DNA of 28,118 nt from Rhodocyclales bacterium (GTDB lineage Bacteria; Pseudomonadota; Gammaproteobacteria; Burkholderiales; Rhodocyclaceae). The position numbers and the translations under genes are program-made. A model generated the notes under the pieces. The model did no database searches, had not been told where the DNA came from, and worked only from the letters and a program-made list of their open reading frames with translations. The stretch lies in the NCBI GenBank assembly GCA_016177805.1, contig JACOUN010000036.1, positions 1 to 28,118 on the forward strand. Reading direction: 5' to 3'. This document shows positions 491 to 27,861 of this stretch, piece after piece (positions within the stretch are counted from its first letter, which is position 1; each line of letters begins with the position of its first letter).

Positions 491-1414
491 TCAGGAGAAA
501 TCCAGGCCGAAGTACTTGAGTTCGATCTGGAGGCGGATGCAGATCCAGTCGTCCTCCTTGGCGATGCTGGCGTAGTGAGGCATGACATATGCCCTGAGAT
601 CGGCGGTCTTGCCTTTCAGCATGCTGTATGCGACGTCCACGTTGGCCGATATCGGGCCGACGAAGCTGGTGGTGACGGTAGTGAAGTTGCTGCCGAGGTT
701 GCCGCTGGCCGGCACGGGCTGGCCGGCGCTGGAGAGGATGGTCAGTCCTGACAGTTCTGCGGTGACGGCAAGGGTGCCGTCGGGGACCTGATGGAGCGTC
801 TGGAATTCCTGGGCCACCATCTTGCGCGGGTTTTCGTCCTTCACCACGTCCCTGAACTTGTAGTTGTTGAAGAACACATGGCGGCCCAGGGCCAGCACCC
901 GGAACGGTCCTTCCTTGATGATGACTTTCTTGTGCGGATCCTGGCCGGGAGCATCGAATTCCTTGGCCTTCTTCAGCACCAGGGCCATGCGTCGCAGGGC
1001 TTCGAGGATCGCACGCAGCGTTTCGGCGGTTGATCCGTGGTTGAACAGGACGATGCCCTGCTCGACGCCCCCTTCATCCAGGGGCTCGAAGTCCTCGGGG
1101 GCAAGCGTTCTGAAAAAGCCGTTCTGCAACTGCTCCCATAGCGCGGTGAAGGTTGGCAGATCTTCGTCGCGCCGGGTGATCTGTCCGTCCAGATAGCTGA
1201 CGAACCGCGAGACCAGCTCCGGTTCGGGCGGGCGGAATGCGATGGTCAGGTCGCGCAGCCAGGCGGCCATGCGCTCGGCCAGTTCGGGCGGGGGCGGTTC
1301 GCCGCGGCCGGGGAGCTGCCCGGCGCAGGCGGCGATCAGGTCGAGGATGCGGGCGCCGAAGGCAAAGGGTTCGGCCAGTGTCAGGTGGTTGTAGCTCTCT
1401 TGGTCTTGAATCAC
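491..1414 (-). CDS. Conserved hypothetical protein (about 307 aa); helical N-half, beta-rich C-half. No domain I can name.
   Basis: Long minus-strand ORF. The preferred start is GTG at 1414, preceded by GAGGGGGA 9 nt upstream; the ORF could extend to 1447. It is co-oriented and lies 116 bp downstream of rtcA. There is no GGQ motif, so it is not PrfH. I see no obvious HEPN Rx4-6H motif. Confidence 0.6.
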   Translation of the reverse strand: MIQDQESYNHLTLAEPFAFGARILDLIAACAGQLPGRGEPPPPELAERMAAWLRDLTIAFRPPEPELVSRFVSYLDGQITRRDEDLPTFTALWEQLQNGFFRTLAPEDFEPLDEGGVEQGIVLFNHGSTAETLRAILEALRRMALVLKKAKEFDAPGQDPHKKVIIKEGPFRVLALGRHVFFNNYKFRDVVKDENPRKMVAQEFQTLHQVPDGTLAVTAELSGLTILSSAGQPVPASGNLGSNFTTVTTSFVGPISANVDVAYSMLKGKTADLRAYVMPHYASIAKEDDWICIRLQIELKYFGLDFS

Positions 1415-1530
1415 GTTCGTTATCCCCCTCAAGTGGTGTGCGGGCACCGACGGCGCGCGCCGTCCGGTGCCGCAGCGGTTGTGGATGTGTTGCCATGGGC
1501 ATTATCGACATGGCCGGCACGATTTCCAGT

Positions 1531-2634
1531 TTAGATAACGCCGGGAGGAATGCAAAAGCTGGTTTGCGATTGGCATGATGACGATGGTTGCCCGGAGGCG
1601 GCAGGGTTCGCGGCAATCCGATGACCCTGTGCCGTCTTGGTCGTCTCGAAGCGCAGCGGCAGAAACCGCTGCACCACCTCCATGTTGGTTTCGAGGTGCG
1701 ATGACAGCGTGGCGGTGGTCAGGCTGCCGCCGCGCGCGAGCGCCAGCGGCAGCACCAGTTGATCGGCCAGGTGCTCGCCGACCGCGGCATCCGAGGCGCG
1801 GTCGGCGCGGGCGGCCTTGATCACGCGCGCGGCGACGGCTTCGGCGGGCAGGCCGCGTTCGCCGAAGGCGACGAACACTTCGGTCACTTCGCTGTGCTGG
1901 TCGACCAGCAGCAACGCGTTGCCTGGTCCTTCGCGAGCGGGCAGGACGCGCAGTTCAACTTCGGCACCCAGCGCGGCGGCTTCCACCATGGTCAGTTCGC
2001 GCCTGGCGACATCCACCGGCACGCCCGCGACCACGGCCACGGCGCGCGCCTGCAGCGGCGTGCCGCGCTCGCACAGATGCAGGGTCTTCAGCGCCGCGAC
2101 CGGGGTGACGCGCGCGCGGATCTCGCCCCCGCCGGCCGGGTAGAAGCCGTGGCGCAGCAGTTCGATGTCCATGTCCACCCCCATGCGGCGCATCAGCGGT
2201 AGCCAGGCGTGGATCAGGAAGTCGGCGGGCGGGGCGGCCGGGTTGTGCGTGCCGCCGCTGACCGTCACCGTGCTCGGCGCGTCGGCAAACCACAGCGCGG
2301 GGAGGATGGTTTGCAGCACCAGGGTGCAGCTACCGGCGCTGCCGATGGCGTGGCGATAGTCGCCGCCACGGATGCGTCCGGGCACGAAGTGCAGTGAGCG
2401 CGAGCCCAGCGCCGCGCCATCCACCCGCGCGCCGCAGATCTGCGCGGCGGCCTGCACGGCGGTCAGGTGCTGGCGCAGCAGCCCCGGTTTGGCGCGGCGG
2501 GCGCGGATGTGGTCGAGGCGCAGCGGCGTGCCGGTGATCATCGACAGCGTCAACGCGGTGCGCAGTATCTGCCCGCCGCCTTCGCCTTGTGAGCCGTCGA
2601 GCGTCACGGTGTCGAGCGTACAGGTGTCAGGCAT
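1531..2634 (-). CDS. rtcA: RNA 3'-terminal phosphate cyclase RtcA, with about 25 extra C-terminal residues compared with E. coli.
   Basis: LDGSQGEGGGQILRTALTLSMITG, RAKPGLLRQHLT and FAIGSAGSCTLVLQTILPALWFA match my recollection of E. coli RtcA closely. The ATG at 2634 overlaps the upstream gene's stop by 8 nt. Confidence 0.95.
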   Translation of the reverse strand: MPDTCTLDTVTLDGSQGEGGGQILRTALTLSMITGTPLRLDHIRARRAKPGLLRQHLTAVQAAAQICGARVDGAALGSRSLHFVPGRIRGGDYRHAIGSAGSCTLVLQTILPALWFADAPSTVTVSGGTHNPAAPPADFLIHAWLPLMRRMGVDMDIELLRHGFYPAGGGEIRARVTPVAALKTLHLCERGTPLQARAVAVVAGVPVDVARRELTMVEAAALGAEVELRVLPAREGPGNALLLVDQHSEVTEVFVAFGERGLPAEAVAARVIKAARADRASDAAVGEHLADQLVLPLALARGGSLTTATLSSHLETNMEVVQRFLPLRFETTKTAQGHRIAANPAASGQPSSSCQSQTSFCIPPGVI

Positions 2635-3445
2635 GGGAGTCTCCGGTCATGACGGTCTGGAGCAGGAAACGGTCGAGCGCCTCCGTGTCGCCTTGCGGCG
2701 TGCGGTAGGAAACGTCGCGGTCGACCTGCGCCAGCATGCCTTCTATGTAGGCGTGGATGGCAGGCCAGCGCGGCCCGTGCTCGGCTTCGCCGACGCGCAT
2801 CTTGACCGCCAGCAGGCGGTTGATTTCGTCGCGCAGGGTTTCGTCACTGATGGTTGCTTGCGCGAGTTCGGCGAAGCGCATCGGCGGCATGCTCCGGTAT
2901 TCGTCGATCCATTGCACCGCCAGCAGCGGGCGCAGCACGTACAGGTACTTTTTCAGACGCACCGTATCGCCCCGCAGATAGCCTTGAAAGTTCTTCTTGG
3001 CCATGGCGAGGTAGTGGTAGCGGCCGCGCATGGGCGAGAAGAACTGCGCCGCCAGCGCGCGCAGGCCGGCGGCGGCATCGGAGCGTTCGCGATAGATCAC
3101 CGGCGAGTCCAGCCATTCGAGCAGGGTCGGGTTGGAGCGGCGCAGCAGGCGCAGCGCCTTGCGCAGCTCCCAGCCGCTGACGTCCAGTTCGTCGCTGATC
3201 GGCAGTTCGATGACGTCGCGCTGCGCTTCGACGCGCAAATACCACGGCATGCGTGGCACGTAGACGAAGCGCACATCGTAGTCGCTGTCGGGCGAGGCGA
3301 AGCCCCAGCCCCGGCTCCCCGACTCGCAGGCGAACAGCACCCGCACCTCGTGGCGGGCCTCGATCTCGTCCAGCGCCTGCATCACGCGCTGGCGTACCGC
3401 CGGGTCTATCGGGTGGGCGGTGAGTATTGTGTTGCTTGTTTGCAT
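2627..3445 (-). CDS. Pol-beta-superfamily nucleotidyltransferase (272 aa); a predicted RNA-repair-associated NTase.
   Basis: The GS-x9-DxD minimal NTase signature is present in CESGSRGWGFASPDSDYDVRFVY. The gene sits between rtcB and rtcA in the same orientation. Its stop overlaps the rtcA start (ATGCCTGA), which suggests translational coupling. Confidence 0.85.
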   Translation of the reverse strand: MQTSNTILTAHPIDPAVRQRVMQALDEIEARHEVRVLFACESGSRGWGFASPDSDYDVRFVYVPRMPWYLRVEAQRDVIELPISDELDVSGWELRKALRLLRRSNPTLLEWLDSPVIYRERSDAAAGLRALAAQFFSPMRGRYHYLAMAKKNFQGYLRGDTVRLKKYLYVLRPLLAVQWIDEYRSMPPMRFAELAQATISDETLRDEINRLLAVKMRVGEAEHGPRWPAIHAYIEGMLAQVDRDVSYRTPQGDTEALDRFLLQTVMTGDSHA

Positions 3446-3482
3446 GACTATCTCTTTCGGTATGGTCGGCGGCGTGCCGTGG

Positions 3483-4724
3483 TCATCCTTTCACACACAC
3501 CACCTGACGCAGGGTGTGCACCACTTCCACCAGCTCGCGCTGGGCGTGCATCACCGCGTCGATGTCCTTGTAGGCCATCGGGATTTCGTCGATCACGTCG
3601 CTGTCCTTGCGGCATTCGACGTGGGCGGTGGCGCGCATCTGGTCTTCGATGGTGTAGCGGCGCTTGGCCTCGTTGCGGCTCATCGCGCGGCCGGCGCCGT
3701 GGCTGCAGGAGCAGAAGGCCGCTTCGTTGCCGAGGCCGCGCACGATGTAGCTGCGCGCGCCCATCGAGCCGGGGATGATCCCGAGTTCCCCTTTCTGCGC
3801 CGACACCGCGCCCTTGCGCGTGACCAGCACCTCCTGCCCGTAGTGGCGCTCGCGCTGCACGTAGTTGTGGTGGCAGTTCACCGCTTCCACGTCGGCGGTG
3901 AACGGCTTGGCGATCACCTGGCGCGCGGCGGTCACGACGTTCTGCATCATGGCCTGGCGGTTGCGCCGGGCGTAGTCCTGCGCCCAGCCGACGGCGGCGA
4001 CGTAGTCGTCGAAGTGCGTGCTGCCTTCCTCGAAGTAGGCCAGATCGCGGTGCGGCAAATCGGCGAGGTGCTGGCGCATGTCGGCCTGCGCCAGTTCGAT
4101 AAACACATTGCCGATCGCGTTGCCCACCCCGCGTGAGCCCGAGTGCAGCATGAACCACACCCGGTCGGCCTCGTCCAGGCACACTTCGATGAAGTGGTTG
4201 CCGGTTCCCAGCGTTCCAAGGTGCTTGTAGTTGTTGGTGTTCTTCAGGCGCGGGTATTTCTCGGTGATGCGCGCGAAGCCCGGCTGGAGTGCCTTCCACA
4301 GCGCGTCGACGTTGTCCGGCGGGTTCTCCCACGCGCCCTTGTCGCGGCCGCCGCGTGTCATCGTGCGGCCATGCGGCACGGCGCGTTCGATGGCGTCGCG
4401 CAGTCCGCCGAGCTGGTCCGGCAGATCGCGCGCGAGCAGGGTGGTGCGCGCGGCCATCATGCCGCAGCCGATGTCCACCCCGACGGCGGCCGGAATGATG
4501 GCGCCGACGGTCGGGATCACGCTGCCTATGGTCGAGCCCTTGCCCAGGTGTACGTCCGGCATCACCGCCAGATGGCGGAAGATGAACGGCATCCTGGCGG
4601 TGTTCATGAGCTGCGCGCGCGCTTCGGCTTCAACCGGCACGCCTTGCGTCCACATCCGGATCGGCGCGCCGTTGATCACCTCCAGCAGTTCGGAGGTCGT
4701 GGTGGTGTTGATGTTCGTTTCCAT
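3483..4724 (-). CDS. rtcB: RNA-splicing ligase RtcB (3'-phosphate/5'-OH ligase).
   Basis: Near-colinear identity with E. coli RtcB as I recall it: MWTQGVPVEAEARAQL, MPDVHLGKGSTIGSVIPT, CSCSHGAGR, PMAYKDIDAVM...VVCVKG. It is 413 aa. Confidence 0.97.
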   Translation of the reverse strand: METNINTTTTSELLEVINGAPIRMWTQGVPVEAEARAQLMNTARMPFIFRHLAVMPDVHLGKGSTIGSVIPTVGAIIPAAVGVDIGCGMMAARTTLLARDLPDQLGGLRDAIERAVPHGRTMTRGGRDKGAWENPPDNVDALWKALQPGFARITEKYPRLKNTNNYKHLGTLGTGNHFIEVCLDEADRVWFMLHSGSRGVGNAIGNVFIELAQADMRQHLADLPHRDLAYFEEGSTHFDDYVAAVGWAQDYARRNRQAMMQNVVTAARQVIAKPFTADVEAVNCHHNYVQRERHYGQEVLVTRKGAVSAQKGELGIIPGSMGARSYIVRGLGNEAAFCSCSHGAGRAMSRNEAKRRYTIEDQMRATAHVECRKDSDVIDEIPMAYKDIDAVMHAQRELVEVVHTLRQVVCVKG

Positions 4725-4755
4725 GTTCTTCTCTATCGTTTTCAGCTTGTTTGCG

Positions 4756-5895
4756 TCAGTTGCCCTTGAGTGTGACCAGGCCGTTCAGCACCTGATCCAG
4801 CCCGCCGAACACCGAGATCCGGTCGATCCGCTCCGCCACGCGCTCCAGCGTTTCCAGTTCCTTCAGGCGCAGCGCGGTCGGGTTGTCTTCCATGACCCGC
4901 GCGGTGTTGAGCAGCGAGCGGGTGGCCGAGGTTTCTTCGCGCCGGCGGATGACGTTGGCCTGGGCGGCCTTCTCCGCCTCGACCACCTGCGCGAGTATGG
5001 TGCGCATCTCGCCCGGCAGCACGATGTCCTTGACGCCGAGACTGCGGATCTCGATGCCGAATCCGGCCAGCCGCGTCACCGCGTACTCGCTCACCACCTC
5101 GTCGATGACGCGCTTGTTCTCCAGTAGTTCGTCGAGCGAACGGGTGCCCACCGCCGCGCGCAGCCCGAACTGCAGTTCGCGGTAGAGGTGTTCGACCGGT
5201 TTGGCGAGTTTCTCGCACGCCAGCAACACGTCGGCGTAACGCCAGGTCACGCCCAGGTTGATGCGCAGCGCGACCTTGTCGCGGGTCAGGATTTCCTGGC
5301 CGCTCACTTCCATGTTCTGCAGGCGCGTGTCCACCAGTTCGACCGAGATCTCGCGGTTGAAGCGCCAGTACGCCTCGATGCCGGGGTTCAGCATGCGTTC
5401 CATCCTGCCGTCCATCCTCACTATGCCGACATGGTAAGCCGGAACCTGCGCCAGCAGCACCGCGCCCAGGCCGGCCACCGGCCGGCCGCGCAGGCCGGGC
5501 TGGGTCAGGCGCATCGTCAGCGCGGCCGGCAGGGCGACCGTCTGGCGCAGATCGACCTTCTCCAGCCGGTGCGCGAGCACGCCCTTCCAGATCATGCGCC
5601 GGGTACCCGGCGGCAGGATTTCCACCAGCACGTCATTCTCGTAGCGCAGTCCCGCCTCGTCTTCGGACAGATCCATGATCTCGAAGCAGGATTCGACCAG
5701 ACGGGGTTCGCGGGCACGCAGATACTCACCCAGTTCGACATCGGTGAGCGCCGTGTCGATGCGCCATACCTGCACGCTCAGGCGGTTCATCGGGTCCCAG
5801 AAATAGTGGCGCCCGGCGCTCAGGAGGCGCACGAAATCCCCGTCCTTGAGCAAGGCGGCCTGTTCGTATTTCTTCACCACAAATCTCTTGATCAT
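4756..5895 (-). CDS. SPFH/band-7 (stomatin/flotillin-like) domain protein; first gene of the sigma54-driven rtc operon.
   Basis: The central SPFH core reads LRINLGVTWRY...GIEIRSLGVKDIVLPGEMRTILAQVVEAEKAAQANVIRRREETSATRSL, followed by a coiled-coil-like tail. I prefer the start at ATG 5895 (MIKRFVV), which has a GGAGAA SD 6 nt upstream. The ATG at 5913 lacks an SD. The gene ends 31 bp before rtcB. Confidence 0.88.
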   Translation of the reverse strand: MIKRFVVKKYEQAALLKDGDFVRLLSAGRHYFWDPMNRLSVQVWRIDTALTDVELGEYLRAREPRLVESCFEIMDLSEDEAGLRYENDVLVEILPPGTRRMIWKGVLAHRLEKVDLRQTVALPAALTMRLTQPGLRGRPVAGLGAVLLAQVPAYHVGIVRMDGRMERMLNPGIEAYWRFNREISVELVDTRLQNMEVSGQEILTRDKVALRINLGVTWRYADVLLACEKLAKPVEHLYRELQFGLRAAVGTRSLDELLENKRVIDEVVSEYAVTRLAGFGIEIRSLGVKDIVLPGEMRTILAQVVEAEKAAQANVIRRREETSATRSLLNTARVMEDNPTALRLKELETLERVAERIDRISVFGGLDQVLNGLVTLKGN

Positions 5896-6152
5896 GCTGT
5901 TCTCCAGTTTCATTCATGCGTTGCGTGAGCCGGTCAGCGCCGGCCCGGACGGACGCTTTGCGCGACACACCCAGGGAGGCGGGCGGTGAGCGCTGGGGGG
6001 AGCCACAAACGCGCTGCCCTCCCAGGCTCGCCGCCCGCCTTGCCGCGTGCGCGGCGCAGGGGTCGGTCCGGGCCGGCGACGGGGGCTTGCGCCCACCGCG
6101 ACCGGCGGTTGCTGCTTGACTGCGATGCTTCAGTCGTCTTTTGAGGACGATT

Positions 6153-6216
6153 TGGAGCGGGACTCGAACCCGCAACACGTTGCATATGCAACCGCTCTAC
6201 CCATTGAGCTATCCAG
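6153..6216 (-). ncRNA. tRNA-like element A (64 nt): canonical D-arm and T-arm, with shortened acceptor and anticodon-equivalent arms.
   Basis: Minus-sense sequence: CTGGA TA GCTC AATGGGT AGAGC G GTTGC-ATAT-GCAAC GTGTT GCGGG TTCGAGT CCCGC TCCA. The D-loop keeps the GG pair, and the T-loop TTCGAGT matches T-psi-C-G-A. The anticodon region is a 5-bp palindromic hairpin with a 4-nt loop, so no 7-nt anticodon loop exists. The acceptor helix is only 4-5 bp. It therefore cannot be a functional tRNA. Confidence 0.6.
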
Positions 6217-6265
6217 TGGTGTGCGATCCGGGAATCGAACCCGGATTTCTCAACCATGTCCGCAC
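6217..6265 (-). ncRNA. tRNA-like element B (49 nt): an acceptor/T-arm minihelix ending in an encoded ACCA, immediately 5' of element A.
   Basis: Minus-sense sequence: GTGCGGA CATGGTTGAGAAAT CCGGG TTCGATT CCCGG ATCGCAC A CCA. It has a perfect 5-bp T-stem, a TTCGATT loop and a 6-of-7 acceptor helix. The discriminator and CCA are encoded. It has no D or anticodon arms. Confidence 0.55.
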
Positions 6266-6393
6266 CATGACCGTGTCCTGCTGCCGCGGCATGCGCCAGA
6301 GCCAACGGGATTATTTCCGGGCCAGGCGCACCAGTGGGGCGGATGAACCCCGGCTCGTCGGCGTTGCAGCACTACAGCGGTCGAGCTACCCAT

Positions 6394-6410
6394 AGCGATA
6401 GGCGTGCCAG
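6394..6410 (-). promoter_or_regulatory. Sigma54 (RpoN) -24/-12 promoter for the tRNA-like/SPFH/rtcB/NTase/rtcA operon, divergent from rtcR.
   Basis: Minus-sense CTGGCAC-GCCTA-TCGCT. GG and GC are spaced exactly as in the TGGCAC-N5-TTGCW consensus. It sits 137 bp upstream of the rtcR start, as expected for an RtcR/sigma54 target. Confidence 0.6.
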
Positions 6411-6546
6411 TTGAGCCAGATTGGCGTGATAAATACGCAAGGCATTGAAATAGACGAGTAAATGCATGTTGCAGAAAGATCGTCGCAAGAACGACGCGCC
6501 GGCGTTACTATATGAAAGGCTAGTGAATTATCGTGTGGGATAAGCA

Positions 6547-8139
6547 ATGAAGAAGACGGTGGTGATCGGTTTTCTCGGGACTCAGCTCGACTACTCGGGG
6601 AATGGGGCCAAGCGGTGGGAGAGGTGGCGCCCCACCGTCAGCCTGTGCCAGCACGACGATCTGCTGGTGAGCCGGCTGGAACTGCTGCACGATGCACGTC
6701 GCCGGGGGTTGGCCGAGCGCGTCGCGCTCGACATCGCCAGCGTTTCACCGGAAACGCAAGTGCGCCGGGTTGAAACCGCGATCCGCGACCCGTGGGATTT
6801 CGAGGAGGTGTACACCGCGCTGCACGACTACGCGCGCGGCTACCCGTTCGACGTGGATAACGAGGACTACCTGATCCACATCACCACCGGCACCCACGTG
6901 GCGCAGATCTGCTGGTTCCTGCTGGCCGAGGCGCATTACCTGCCGGCACGGCTGCTGCAGACCTCGCCGCCACGCAAGCAGGCGCCGGCCGATTCGGTGG
7001 GCAGCTACACCCTGATCGATCTGGATCTGTCGCGTTACAACAAGATCGCGCAACGCTTCAGGCGTGAAGCCGAAGAAACCGTGACCCAGCTCAAGTCCGG
7101 CATCGCCACGCGCAACGCGCGCTTCAACGACATGATTGCGCAGATCGAGCACGTCGCCGGGCGCTCCTCCGCGCCGATGCTGCTCATCGGCCCGACCGGG
7201 GCGGGCAAGTCGTTTCTGGCCCGGCGCATCTTTGAGCTGAAGGTGCAGCGTCAGCGTTTCGCGGGTCGCTTCGTCGAAATCAACTGCGCCACGTTGCGCG
7301 GCGATTCAGCCATGTCGGCGCTGTTCGGTCACGTCAAGGGGGCGTTCACCGGGGCGCAGAGCGAGCGGCCGGGGTTGTTGCGTTCGGCGCATCAGGGGTT
7401 GCTGTTTCTCGATGAAATCGGGGAATTGGGCCTGGATGAGCAGGCCATGCTGCTCAAGGCGGTCGAGGAGAAACGCTTCTTCCCGTTCGGCGGCGACCGC
7501 GAGGTGGATAGCGACTTCCAGCTCATCGCCGGAACCCACCGCGATCTGCGGCAATGGGTGGCCGAAGGCCGTTTTCGCGAAGACCTCTACGCCCGCATCA
7601 ATCTGTGGACCTTCGATCTGCCGGGGTTGGCGGCGCGGCGCGAAGACATCGAACCGAACATCGATTTTGAACTGCGCCGCTATGCCGAAGCCGAAAACCA
7701 GCAGGTGCGCTTCAACGTCGAAGCGCGTCAGGCTTACTTGCGCTTCTGCAGCTCTGCCGAAGCGCGCTGGCCCGGCAATTTCCGCGAGCTGTCCGCGTCG
7801 ATCACGCGCCTGGCGACGCTAAGCGATGCGGGGCGCATCACCGTCGAGCATGTGCACGAGGAGATCGCCCGCCTGCGCCGCAGTTGGGGGGGGGATGAGT
7901 CCGGGGGCGGAGTGCTGAGCGCATTGCTGGGTGAGCGTGCGGAACAGATCGATCTGTTCGATCGCGCCCAGTTGTCCGCCGTGATCGCGGTGTGCCAGGC
8001 GTCGAACAGCCTGTCCGACGCCGGGCGCAAGCTGTTCGCGGTGTCACGTCAGGGAAAGAAGCAGCCCAACGACGCGGACCGGCTGCGCAAGTATCTGGCG
8101 CGATTCGGTCTGGATTGGGCTGCGCTCAGCGGCGCTTGA
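6547..8139 (+). CDS. rtcR: RtcR: a sigma54-dependent transcriptional activator with an N-terminal CARF domain, a AAA+ sigma54-interaction domain and a C-terminal HTH.
   Basis: The N-terminus (MKKTVVIGFLGTQLDYSGNGAKRWERWRPT...IASVSPETQV...PWDFEEVY...YLIHITTGTHVAQICWFLLAEA) matches my recollection of E. coli RtcR. Walker A GPTGAGKS and an ESELFGH-like SALFGH motif are present. Confidence 0.95.
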   Translation: MKKTVVIGFLGTQLDYSGNGAKRWERWRPTVSLCQHDDLLVSRLELLHDARRRGLAERVALDIASVSPETQVRRVETAIRDPWDFEEVYTALHDYARGYPFDVDNEDYLIHITTGTHVAQICWFLLAEAHYLPARLLQTSPPRKQAPADSVGSYTLIDLDLSRYNKIAQRFRREAEETVTQLKSGIATRNARFNDMIAQIEHVAGRSSAPMLLIGPTGAGKSFLARRIFELKVQRQRFAGRFVEINCATLRGDSAMSALFGHVKGAFTGAQSERPGLLRSAHQGLLFLDEIGELGLDEQAMLLKAVEEKRFFPFGGDREVDSDFQLIAGTHRDLRQWVAEGRFREDLYARINLWTFDLPGLAARREDIEPNIDFELRRYAEAENQQVRFNVEARQAYLRFCSSAEARWPGNFRELSASITRLATLSDAGRITVEHVHEEIARLRRSWGGDESGGGVLSALLGERAEQIDLFDRAQLSAVIAVCQASNSLSDAGRKLFAVSRQGKKQPNDADRLRKYLARFGLDWAALSGA

Positions 8140-26775: not shown

Positions 26776-27081
26776 CGATGCGGGACGAAACGCCATTGCG
26801 GCCGACCATCCGACCGCGATGGCCCCCGACCCGTGAATCAGTCACGGTGTTGACGGACGCCAGCCTTCCCGGAATGGCGGTAGCAGACGGCTCGTCGAGC
26901 GCCTGAGGACGCACGCTGCGCAATGGGCTGCCCAAGACGTGCACAGGAACACACCGAACATGACATCGCCCATCGCCCGGCAACGGCCTGGCGTACCCAA
27001 CCCCTACAGCGGCGTAGCGCCGAAGCGCCAGCGCAGCGCTCCGATCACGCTTCAGATGGCGCCGAGCGGCTGCCTTCAGGT

Positions 27082-27861
27082 ATGTTGAATAAGCTCCGCG
27101 CGCAGTTTCCCCGGCTCGAAGGGCCGCTCCTTACGGGCCTGAGTCCGTTCACCCTACGCGGTGAGGTGATCGGATGGATCGTCCGGATCGGGCGGCAAGG
27201 CATCTTGTTTCAGCGGGATTTCTGGGCCTCGACCCATTGCGGCATGGAGGCGGCTTTTCGCGCCGCGTCCGCCTACCGGGATGAGGTCGATCGGGACTAC
27301 CCCCGGCTGTCGAGCGCCGAGCGATGCACGACGCTGCGCGCCAACAATACCAGCGGGATCCCAGGGGTAAGCCGGCAGATGGTGGAAGGCAGGCCGTACT
27401 GGGTGGCGGAAGTGGGCGTTCGGGGATACAAGAAGGCGCGCCGCTTCTCCATCCGCAAGTATGGCGACGAGCGTGCCCGGAATCTGGCGATCGAGGCCCG
27501 CCGCGCGCTCCTCGCGCACGTGCAAACCCTGCAAGAGCGTCGGGCCGAGCGGTCCCCACTTGAATCTGCGCAGCCCGAAAACCTGCCCCTGGCGCGGGCC
27601 GCGCTGCGCGGCTTTCCGTGGCCGAATCCCCATGTGCATCGTGCCAGTGGTGTTCTGGGTGTGCGGCTCATGCGCGCCGAACACGTGCGCAAGGACGGAA
27701 CGGTGTCGGTTGCCGAACACTGGATGGCCTCGATGAAGGTTGCCGAGCGGACCTATCGCGCCTGTTTCTCCGTGAAACGCTTCGGCAACGAAGAGGCCAT
27801 GCGTCTGGCGATCGAGCAGCGCAGGGCATGGGAGGCCGAGTACAGAAAACCCCGACGCTGA
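27082..27861 (+). CDS. Protein with three tandem AP2 (Apetala-2/ERF-like) DNA-binding domains, about 259 aa.
   Basis: Three repeats of the AP2 pattern are present. Two examples are SGIPGVSRQMVEGRPYWVAEVGVRGYKKARRFSIRKYGDERARNLAIEARRAL and SGVLGVRLMRAEHV...WMASMKVAERTYRACFSVKRFGNEEAMRLAIEQRRAWE. The first repeat contains GWIVRIGRQGILFQRDFW...EAAFRAASAYRDE. An alternative upstream start at 26923 exists. Confidence 0.65.
   Translation: MLNKLRAQFPRLEGPLLTGLSPFTLRGEVIGWIVRIGRQGILFQRDFWASTHCGMEAAFRAASAYRDEVDRDYPRLSSAERCTTLRANNTSGIPGVSRQMVEGRPYWVAEVGVRGYKKARRFSIRKYGDERARNLAIEARRALLAHVQTLQERRAERSPLESAQPENLPLARAALRGFPWPNPHVHRASGVLGVRLMRAEHVRKDGTVSVAEHWMASMKVAERTYRACFSVKRFGNEEAMRLAIEQRRAWEAEYRKPRR

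Follow-up and report, generated by a model that had tools for sequence, protein, structure and literature searches.

RtcB ligases join a 3'-phosphate or a 2',3'-cyclic phosphate to a 5'-OH RNA end. RNA-repair systems are reportedly built on a shared 'syntax' of ligase, nucleotidyltransferase (NTase), end-modifying enzyme, scaffold and cognate RNA, which Burroughs and Aravind are said to have laid out in 2016. According to a preprint (bioRxiv 10.1101/312249), their prediction has RtcB frequently encoded alongside a Band-7 protein and a 'b7a-tRNA', short for band-7-associated tRNA, an RNA that was then without experimental validation. The Pseudomonas aeruginosa PAO1 cluster comprises PA4581 (rtcR), PA4581.1 ('tRNA-Arg4', which has no CCA), PA4582, PA4583 (rtcB), PA4584 (RlaP) and PA4585 (rtcA), with PA4582 and PA4584 listed as function-unassigned proteins in the P. 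aeruginosa literature. Here we analyze positions 1531-8139 of contig JACOUN010000036.1, the entire 28,118 nt of which, from a Rhodocyclales metagenome-assembled genome, we refer to as the window. With a probability of roughly 0.8, this locus is an RNA-repair operon of the Band-7/b7a-tRNA type, which is controlled by RtcR and sigma54 and orthologous in layout to PA4581-PA4585.

A probable RtcR/sigma54-controlled RNA-repair operon

Downstream of a candidate sigma54 promoter the window contains, in this order, a leader RNA and the genes for an SPFH protein, RtcB, RlaP and RtcA, and rtcR is encoded divergently (Table 1). An earlier note, made from the letters of the window, had named the five proteins, and Pfam and NCBIfam agree with all of these identities, those of the SPFH protein and RlaP included. 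RtcR contains PF06956 (8e-87) and the Sigma54_activat domain (PF00158, 1e-48), scores 842 bits against the NCBIfam equivalog NF038308 (cutoff 650) and carries a Walker A motif (GPTGAGK, residue 215) and the GAFTGA motif (residue 265). RtcB matches PF01139 over its full length (1e-128), and the DIGCG, HSGSRG, CHHN, GSMG and HGAGR motifs are all present. RlaP aligns with positions 1-248 of the 249-position PF10127 profile (6e-96, 321 bits) and has a polymerase-beta (pol-beta) NTase motif of the G[SG]...DxD type, GSRGWGFASPDSDYD. RtcA is composed of PF01137 (3e-83) and RTC_insert, scores 452 bits with NF003246 and has its HLADQ motif at residue 288.

The spacings between the genes are 31 nt (SPFH-rtcB), 37 nt (rtcB-RlaP) and -8 nt (RlaP-rtcA). 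The stop of RlaP and the start of rtcA thus share 8 nt (CATGCCTGA), consistent with the translational coupling of the two genes that the earlier note had proposed. In a simple scan of the minus strand, the leader and the gaps between the operon genes gave no terminator-like site, and two such sites fell inside the RlaP reading frame. The short spacings, together with the lack of terminator-like sites in the leader and between the genes, fit a single operon.

The predicted -24/-12 promoter reads CTGGCACGCCTATCGCT, with the TGGCAC-N5-TCGC core at 6409-6395 on the minus strand, and lies 137 nt from the rtcR start codon. The motif TGGCA[C/T]-N7-GC is found once per region and at a constant distance in all 72 homologous rtcR-SPFH intergenic regions (66 have the exact TGGCAC-N5-TCGC), and it is the best-conserved block of the intergenic region, which argues for the promoter as placed in the earlier note. 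Two further blocks, ACGATAATTCAC and TTCAATGCC (minus-strand reading, 6522-6533 and 6441-6450), are ∼90% conserved across the 72 regions. They are located between the rtcR start and the sigma54 promoter and could be candidate RtcR binding sites or the rtcR promoter.

Table 1. Features of the rtc locus, in window coordinates, with the evidence for each assignment
Feature	Position	Strand	Evidence
rtcR, CARF-like sensor, sigma54 AAA+ and AAA lid	6547..8139	+	Pfam/NCBIfam
Predicted sigma54 (-24/-12) promoter	6394..6410	-	sequence motif
Structured leader RNA, ∼470 nt	5914..6387	-	fold and covariation; 5' end estimated
Leader 5' domain, three-helix junction	6285..6363	-	covariance model R1
tRNA-like module A, reduced	6217..6265	-	acceptor pairing and T-arm
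tRNA-like module B ('b7a-tRNA')	6153..6215	-	Rfam RF00005
Linker hairpin, tentative	6132..6148	-	seen in alignments
Leader 3' domain with long rod	5929..6106	-	covariation
SPFH/Band-7 'slipin family' protein	4756..5913 (probable start 5895)	-	PF01145
RtcB RNA ligase	3483..4724	-	PF01139
RlaP pol-beta-fold nucleotidyltransferase	2627..3445	-	PF10127
RtcA RNA 3'-terminal phosphate cyclase	1531..2634	-	PF01137 and RTC_insert

Comparison with other rtc loci

Judged from papers and from other Pseudomonas species, PAO1 has the same gene order, the same orientation and the same CCA-less tRNA-like gene between rtcR and the SPFH gene as the window. The sigma54 motif of the window recurs in related Pseudomonas loci, as do the leader's 5' and 3' domains, and the proteins of Pseudomonas loci are 55-80% identical to those encoded in the window. 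The loci differ in their tRNA-like modules: P. fluorescens-type loci contain two full cloverleaves and P. paraeruginosa contains one, whereas the modules of the window are a reduced one and a cloverleaf with a 4-nt loop. Both traits of the Band-7/b7a-tRNA/RtcB system are found in the window, an SPFH gene beside RtcB and a tRNA-like RNA beside the Band-7 gene, and RlaP (PF10127) corresponds to the NTase associated with the ligase. The prediction, in the part of it available to us, names only the tRNA-like element, whereas the tRNA-like parts of the window sit inside a larger structured leader.

The RtcR-controlled rsr-yrlBA-rtcBA operon of Salmonella likewise has a divergent rtcR, a sigma54 promoter, and a putative scaffold and a tRNA-mimicking non-coding RNA upstream of rtcBA. 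In both YrlA and the window RNA the D and T loop sequences are conserved, and the acceptor or anticodon ends are not tRNA-like. Salmonella, however, encodes a Ro60 orthologue with Y RNAs, whereas the window has an SPFH protein in the place of Ro, and RlaP in addition; the window RNA precedes the scaffold gene, whereas the Salmonella RNA comes after it. No Ro/TROVE match was obtained among the scanned larger open reading frames (ORFs) of the window, in agreement with its earlier description as Ro-less. E. coli K-12 shares with the window the divergent rtcR, the sigma54 promoter and the order RtcB then RtcA, but its rtc locus has no leader with tRNA-like modules, no SPFH gene and no RlaP. The earlier note saw a difference from E. 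coli in the orientation of rtcR; the gene is divergent in the window too, and the difference lies in the inserted leader RNA, SPFH and RlaP. The proposed connection to the Burroughs-Aravind 'syntax' is well founded. By itself, the locus adds little: it is one more copy of a kind of operon already predicted in 2016 and present in model organisms.

Distribution and variants

The SPFH protein belongs to a 'slipin family' with >7000 protein matches, of which the best 120 are 59-95% identical to the window protein. When one genome per species was scanned, at least 563 species were found to carry a slipin relative. The gene set, which had been called non-canonical, is standard in a large share of Beta- and Gammaproteobacteria and is that of the PAO1 rtc cluster. 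We examined gene neighbourhoods in the 80 best loci, which come from Rhodocyclales, Thiobacillus, Gallionellaceae, Burkholderia, Paraburkholderia, Ralstonia and Pseudomonas. RtcB directly follows the SPFH gene in 76 of them and rtcR lies divergently upstream in 71, most of the others being cut off by contig ends. RlaP is present in 43 and RtcA in 36 of the 80 loci, and ∼23 have the complete SPFH-RtcB-RlaP-RtcA set. The association of the SPFH and RlaP genes with rtcB is therefore conserved far beyond the window genome.

Several loci depart from this layout. An extra conserved small gene, encoding ∼120-150 residues with the pattern MKSGKQRR...NSYG.P.F..RGYY.D..F.C, is inserted between the SPFH gene and rtcB in ∼25 related loci (L007, L009, L014, L015, L017, L022, L029, L030, L033, L036, L039, L042, L051, L055, L056, L058, L066, L068-L070, L074-L077 and L079 in our numbering); the window has only the 31-nt gap at this position. 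A second RtcB paralogue, 58-74% identical to the window RtcB, is encoded beyond rtcR and on the rtcR strand in Thiobacillus, a Hydrogenophilaceae metagenome-assembled genome and Ralstonia pickettii (L001, 4224-5393; L004, 4199-5368; L049, 3425-4630). P. paraeruginosa ATCC 9027 (L064, 10193-13138), whose leader has a single tRNA-like module, encodes a HEAT-repeat protein and a di-haem cytochrome c peroxidase after rtcB, in place of RlaP and RtcA. SPFH homologues without rtc genes are found in Chitinimonas lacunae (L060, 7587-9137), with a weak match to the leader 5' domain upstream (34 bits), and on an IMG/VR viral contig (L081, 169-1296), which has no leader.

A large, conserved leader RNA

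The sigma54 motif and the SPFH start codon are 412-545 nt apart in the 72 intergenic regions, and the whole stretch between them is conserved. Folded as a single sequence, the window leader has a minimum free energy z-score of -6.5. An RNAalifold consensus from 41 sequences comprises 85 pairs in 12 helices (H1-H12), of which the window sequence forms 80 of 84. Standard pairing is observed in 94.3% of cases, versus 80.5% in column shuffles and ∼40% when partners are slid by 1-3 columns, and compensatory double changes occur at 61 of the 85 pairs, versus 42 ± 2.7 in shuffles, with the consensus structure derived from the same alignment that was used for these counts. The double changes include 14 of 15 pairs in H11 and all 17 in H12 (31/32 together).

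The 5' domain is a junction of helices H1 (6363-6361/6287-6285), H2 (6358-6348/6339-6330) and H3 (6329-6320/6303-6293), in which the strands GGUGC and AUGCCGC are invariant. Its pairing (93.7% versus 77% in shuffles) and covariation are well above the controls. A covariance model of this domain, R1, scores 71.6 bits on the window (E 3e-16) and returns a single match per locus in 78 of 82 sources and none elsewhere in 1.23 Mb; the misses are three contigs cut off upstream and one viral homologue. In every locus with upstream sequence the SPFH gene comes with the 5' domain, also in four Pseudomonas loci without tRNA-like modules; the viral homologue lacks it. A scan of metagenomes for the domain by a degenerate pattern yielded 120 stretches, none of which fits the covariance model; the pattern is too loose for GC-rich metagenomes, and the scan is uninformative on distribution.

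The 3' domain is closed by helix H9 (6106-6101/5934-5929, GCCGG/CCGGC) and contains H10, a small hairpin, as well as a long, irregular rod with a variable tip (H11 and H12, 6078-6037/5980-5938). It stops ∼25 nt ahead of the ribosome-binding site, and a nhmmer profile of it finds 75 of the 82 sources with one match each. Upstream of the 3' domain, the tentative linker hairpin reads UCGUC-loop-GACGA in the window and CUGUC/GACAG in most relatives, and lies outside the RNAalifold consensus. Rfam 15 has no family for the leader beyond the tRNA match described below. With relaxed thresholds, all that Rfam added was a partial YrlA match below the threshold and, on the GC-rich rod, microRNA matches attributable to chance. 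Comparative sequence analysis thus supports well the existence and conservation of a large leader RNA, which to our knowledge has not been described previously as one unit.

tRNA-like modules within the leader

The earlier note had proposed that the locus encodes tRNA mimics, and two are found. Module B scores 40.8 bits with the Rfam tRNA model RF00005 (gathering score 29). It forms a cloverleaf with canonical D and T loops, but its anticodon-loop position holds a 4-nt AUAU loop, its acceptor stem has only ∼4 bp, and CCA is missing. Its helices H5-H8 are 96-100% paired in the 41-sequence alignment, with covariation at all 5 pairs of the anticodon stem. Module A, the reduced one, resembles the top half of a tRNA: its acceptor stem (GUGCGGA/AUCGCAC, 6 of 7 pairs, found by a per-sequence search without a formal null model) is joined by a 14-nt connector, which stands where the D and anticodon arms would be, to a T-arm (6244-6228) followed by ACCA. 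The T-arm helix H4 is 97.5% paired in the same alignment. MAFFT and RNAalifold applied to module A alone recovered only this T-arm, the short acceptor strands being misaligned. The ACCA is present in the window and 13 related loci and is not conserved overall.

Neither module has the traits of a canonical tRNA, and ARAGORN called no tRNA gene in the window. We conclude that neither decodes, because module B combines a 4-nt loop with a ∼4-bp acceptor stem and no CCA, and module A lacks the D and anticodon arms. ARAGORN does call tRNAs in 50 of the 72 related intergenic regions, with inconsistent anticodons (Met, Ile, Val, Thr, Arg, Pro and 2-nt 'anticodons'). The leader also falls outside the YrlA/bacterial Y RNA family: the YrlA model RF02553 matches only partially, across the A/B junction (20.2 bits versus a gathering score of 69), and the scanned larger ORFs gave no TROVE match.

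A tRNA-like profile matches 73 of the 82 sources. The loop of module B varies between lineages, from a 7-nt loop with CAU in many Rhodocyclales to GNRA in Burkholderia, UUCG in Pseudomonas and AUAU in the window. The slot of module A is occupied by a full cloverleaf in P. fluorescens-type loci. Most loci have two modules (two full cloverleaves in the P. fluorescens type), ∼5 have one, and four Pseudomonas loci have none. In these four (P. donghuensis, L057; P. rubra, L065; P. aegrilactucae, L072; P. palmensis, L080; ∼7570-7990), other hairpins occupy the slot and the 5' and 3' domains are kept. Because the number of modules and their loops vary while the 5' and 3' domains persist, we take the large RNA to be the conserved unit. 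Its tRNA-like parts appear to behave as cassettes, with constraint on the tRNA elbow only.

The SPFH protein

The SPFH start is more likely Met7 (ATG 5895) than the first codon of the ORF, because GGAGA is located 6 nt upstream of this ATG and the resulting product of 379 residues is typical of the homologues. Pfam assigns Band_7 (PF01145, 3e-25) to residues 156-327 only, and in a profile search against PDB sequences residues 187-374 match stomatin (1.7e-23). An AlphaFold2 model (mean predicted local distance difference test score (pLDDT) 74.6, ∼90 over residues 10-130) contains three similar five-strand beta modules (residues 8-51, 77-121 and 152-195), followed by an alpha/beta core and a helix of >60 residues. 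The third beta module corresponds to the usual N-terminal part of the SPFH domain, and the other two are extra and N-terminal to it. The idea of an internal repeat leans mostly on the secondary-structure pattern, with weak profile-profile support (hhalign best P 5e-4, probability 32%). When the N-terminal 150 residues were predicted by themselves, the model was poor (pLDDT 56.6) and the first 54 residues were missing from it.

Membrane-anchored SPFH proteins combine an SPFH domain followed by a coiled-coil helix with an N-terminal transmembrane helix or hydrophobic hairpin. The first trait is present in the window protein; the second was not found by Kyte-Doolittle hydropathy, the only method applied, a result that leaves peripheral membrane binding possible. 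The 19-mer maximum is 1.53 (residues 146-165), falls on a predicted beta strand and is not conserved in the family, whose members reach 1.08-1.86. Since there is no convincing transmembrane segment, the description of the protein as membrane-associated or membrane-localised, given in the earlier note, is an assumption from the family name. Ring- or cage-forming SPFH relatives are among the matches (stomatin, HflK/C, prohibitin, flotillin and major vault protein). With regard to the eukaryotic vault (major vault protein and vault RNA), the window protein has just two extra beta modules in its predicted model, with weak repeat evidence, and we treat the likeness as a lead. In the literature searched, we found no paper on the function of the SPFH protein or of its RNA. 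For these two parts the earlier statement that the arrangement has not been studied experimentally stands; for RlaP it does not (PMC12776372).

Neighbouring genes

The other larger ORFs of the window encode transport and metabolic proteins, so that the flanks of the locus are housekeeping in character. An orphan ORF at 491-1447 (minus strand, 318 residues; annotated with 307 residues as HYS20_03865) is located 83 nt 3' of rtcA, with a sigma70-like hexamer pair ahead of it at 1528-1501. It has no Pfam, NCBIfam or PADLOC match and just 3 homologues among 5.8 billion proteins. We rejected it as a member of the system on these grounds, and it is absent from 80 of 80 related loci. Near the contig end, unrelated to the rtc locus, a 312-residue protein with an AP2 DNA-binding domain (2e-15) is encoded at 26923-27861 on the plus strand.

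Discussion

By analogy to Salmonella and E. coli homologues, RNA damage in the form of 2',3'-cyclic-phosphate tRNA fragments or nicked tRNAs would be sensed via the CARF domain of RtcR, which would then drive sigma54 open-complex formation. Activation of RtcR by damaged tRNA is described in the literature. RtcA would convert 3' or 2' phosphate ends to cyclic phosphate, RlaP would put back one or two nucleotides on trimmed 3' ends, and RtcB would seal the break, again going by the homologues. For RlaP of P. fluorescens and P. aeruginosa, structural and biochemical work from 2025 reports template-independent addition of 1-2 nucleoside monophosphates to RNA 3' ends (PMC12776372). The conserved linkage and the predicted fold suggest that the SPFH protein may be a soluble ring or cage, and that the leader may be its cognate RNA, recognized through the tRNA-elbow-like D/T loops and the other domains. 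The two could form a ribonucleoprotein (RNP) that serves the repair enzymes as a scaffold or cofactor, in analogy to the pairing of Ro and Y RNA.

Our leading guess is that the leader serves an SPFH assembly as its RNA partner. In a fuller form, which we put forward as speculative, 'b7a-tRNA' would be one cassette of an undescribed 412-545-nt RNA, composed of a 5' three-helix junction, 0-2 exchangeable modules and a ∼180-nt rod. This RNA would be transcribed under RtcR/sigma54 control and be cognate to a soluble, vault-like SPFH assembly, and the joint RNP would organize the repair of damaged tRNA by RlaP, RtcB and RtcA.

Several observations weigh against our main account of the locus. RlaP products carry a 3'-OH and are not sealable by RtcB (PMC12776372), which leaves the order of the enzyme steps in doubt. 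In PAO1, the level of the tRNA-like RNA is flat while the PA4582-85 proteins are strongly induced. This is a poor fit to simple co-expression from the sigma54 promoter and suggests that the RNA has a promoter of its own, that it is processed and very stable, or that the signal is a polymerase chain reaction (PCR) artefact. Finally, an Enterobacteriaceae variant consists of a slipin gene followed by an RlaP-like nucleotidyltransferase, with no rtcB or rtcA (E. coli CP061233.1, L202, 5472-7925; Citrobacter freundii, L203, 3966-7919). The pair is divergent from rtcR in C. freundii, and in E. coli it is located beside lysC with no adjacent rtcR. At a coverage of at least 80%, the slipin-NTase module is present in 1625 of 5426 complete E. 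coli genomes (∼30%). Its leader is divergent and shorter, ∼300 nt long, with a sigma54-like motif (TGGCAC-N5-TGGC), one T-arm-like hairpin and a weak match to the 5'-domain model in the expected place (13.9 bits). Because this pair occurs without rtcB and rtcA, the SPFH/RNA module may have a closer tie to RlaP, or to something else, than to the ligase.

The leader might instead act mainly in cis, as a regulatory 5' untranslated region (UTR) that governs how stable the SPFH-rtcB-rlaP-rtcA mRNA is or how well it is translated, and not as part of a trans-acting RNP; its ligand could be, for instance, one of the system's proteins, a tRNA or the end of a damaged RNA. Its position between the promoter and the first ribosome-binding site, without a terminator-like site and with the 3' rod closing just ahead of the Shine-Dalgarno sequence, would fit such a role, as would its invariable location in cis with the SPFH gene and the persistence of its 5' and 3' domains in loci that have lost the tRNA-like modules. 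However, we find no alternative on/off pairing and no sequestered ribosome-binding site, the Shine-Dalgarno sequence lying outside all conserved helices, and a leader of 412-545 nt with 12 helices far exceeds known leaders of this kind. The PAO1 signal of the tRNA-like part in quantitative reverse-transcription PCR is, moreover, uncoupled from operon induction. We regard a mainly cis-acting leader as a serious alternative, though not a probable one.

Somewhat more doubtful is that the tRNA-like modules are processing signals for RNase P, RNase Z or RNase E, which would free stable small RNAs and set the 5' end of the mRNA, the tRNA shape serving enzyme recognition only. Both modules do retain a tRNA elbow and an acceptor-like stem, module A is followed by ACCA in the 14 loci noted above, and RNase P accepts as a substrate the YrlA of Mycobacterium smegmatis, whose acceptor-like stem has 7 bp. 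The short acceptor stem of module B in the window and the poor conservation of ACCA speak against this explanation, as do the four Pseudomonas loci in which every module is missing but the leader is otherwise kept; nor would it explain why the 5' and 3' domains are conserved.

It is unlikely that the tRNA-like RNAs are decoys, that is competitive inhibitors of tRNA-targeting nucleases or tRNA-binding factors with nuclease-proof tetraloops in place of the anticodon loop. The idea would account for loops that differ by lineage (CAU 7-nt, GNRA, UUCG, AUAU) on stems that covary, and it has been raised for YrlA, which is uncut by the Salmonella anticodon nuclease. But decoys produced only after damage has been sensed would come late, their stoichiometry relative to the cellular tRNA pool would be unfavourable, and neither the SPFH protein nor the other RNA domains would have a role. 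The cis-regulatory, processing-signal and decoy explanations are not mutually exclusive.

We hold out equally little hope for the interpretation favoured in the earlier note, a membrane-localised RNA-damage or phage/toxin-response system of novel, unstudied architecture. SPFH proteins are usually membrane-attached, RNA repair is plausible as a response to ribotoxins, and the SPFH/RNA part is indeed without study. Yet the window protein has no transmembrane segment or hydrophobic hairpin, and its N-terminus is predicted well as a beta-rich, soluble region. PADLOC returned no family at E ≤ 0.01 for the SPFH protein, RlaP and the flanking ORF, the one viral contig with a homologue carries neither rtc genes nor leader, the flanks are housekeeping, and the architecture is widespread and already described. 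That the tRNA-like elements are real decoding tRNAs, as in the 'tRNA-Arg4' annotation of PAO1, is very improbable: the ARAGORN calls in related regions and the Rfam score above the gathering threshold are outweighed by the 4-nt loop, ∼4-bp acceptor stem and missing CCA in the window, the empty ARAGORN result there, and anticodons that are inconsistent across loci.

Of all parts of bacterial Rtc systems, the SPFH protein and its RNA are the least well understood, although their spread is very wide: P. aeruginosa and the Burkholderia cepacia complex have them, as do, in a ligase-less version, ∼30% of complete E. coli genomes. The putative RNA partner is more than a tRNA look-alike, being a large multi-domain RNA with strong covariation, and it provides a defined object for experimental work in tractable species. 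It bears on the question of why RNA-repair operons so often pair a scaffold protein with a tRNA-mimicking RNA, as in Ro/Y RNA and SPFH/b7a-tRNA.

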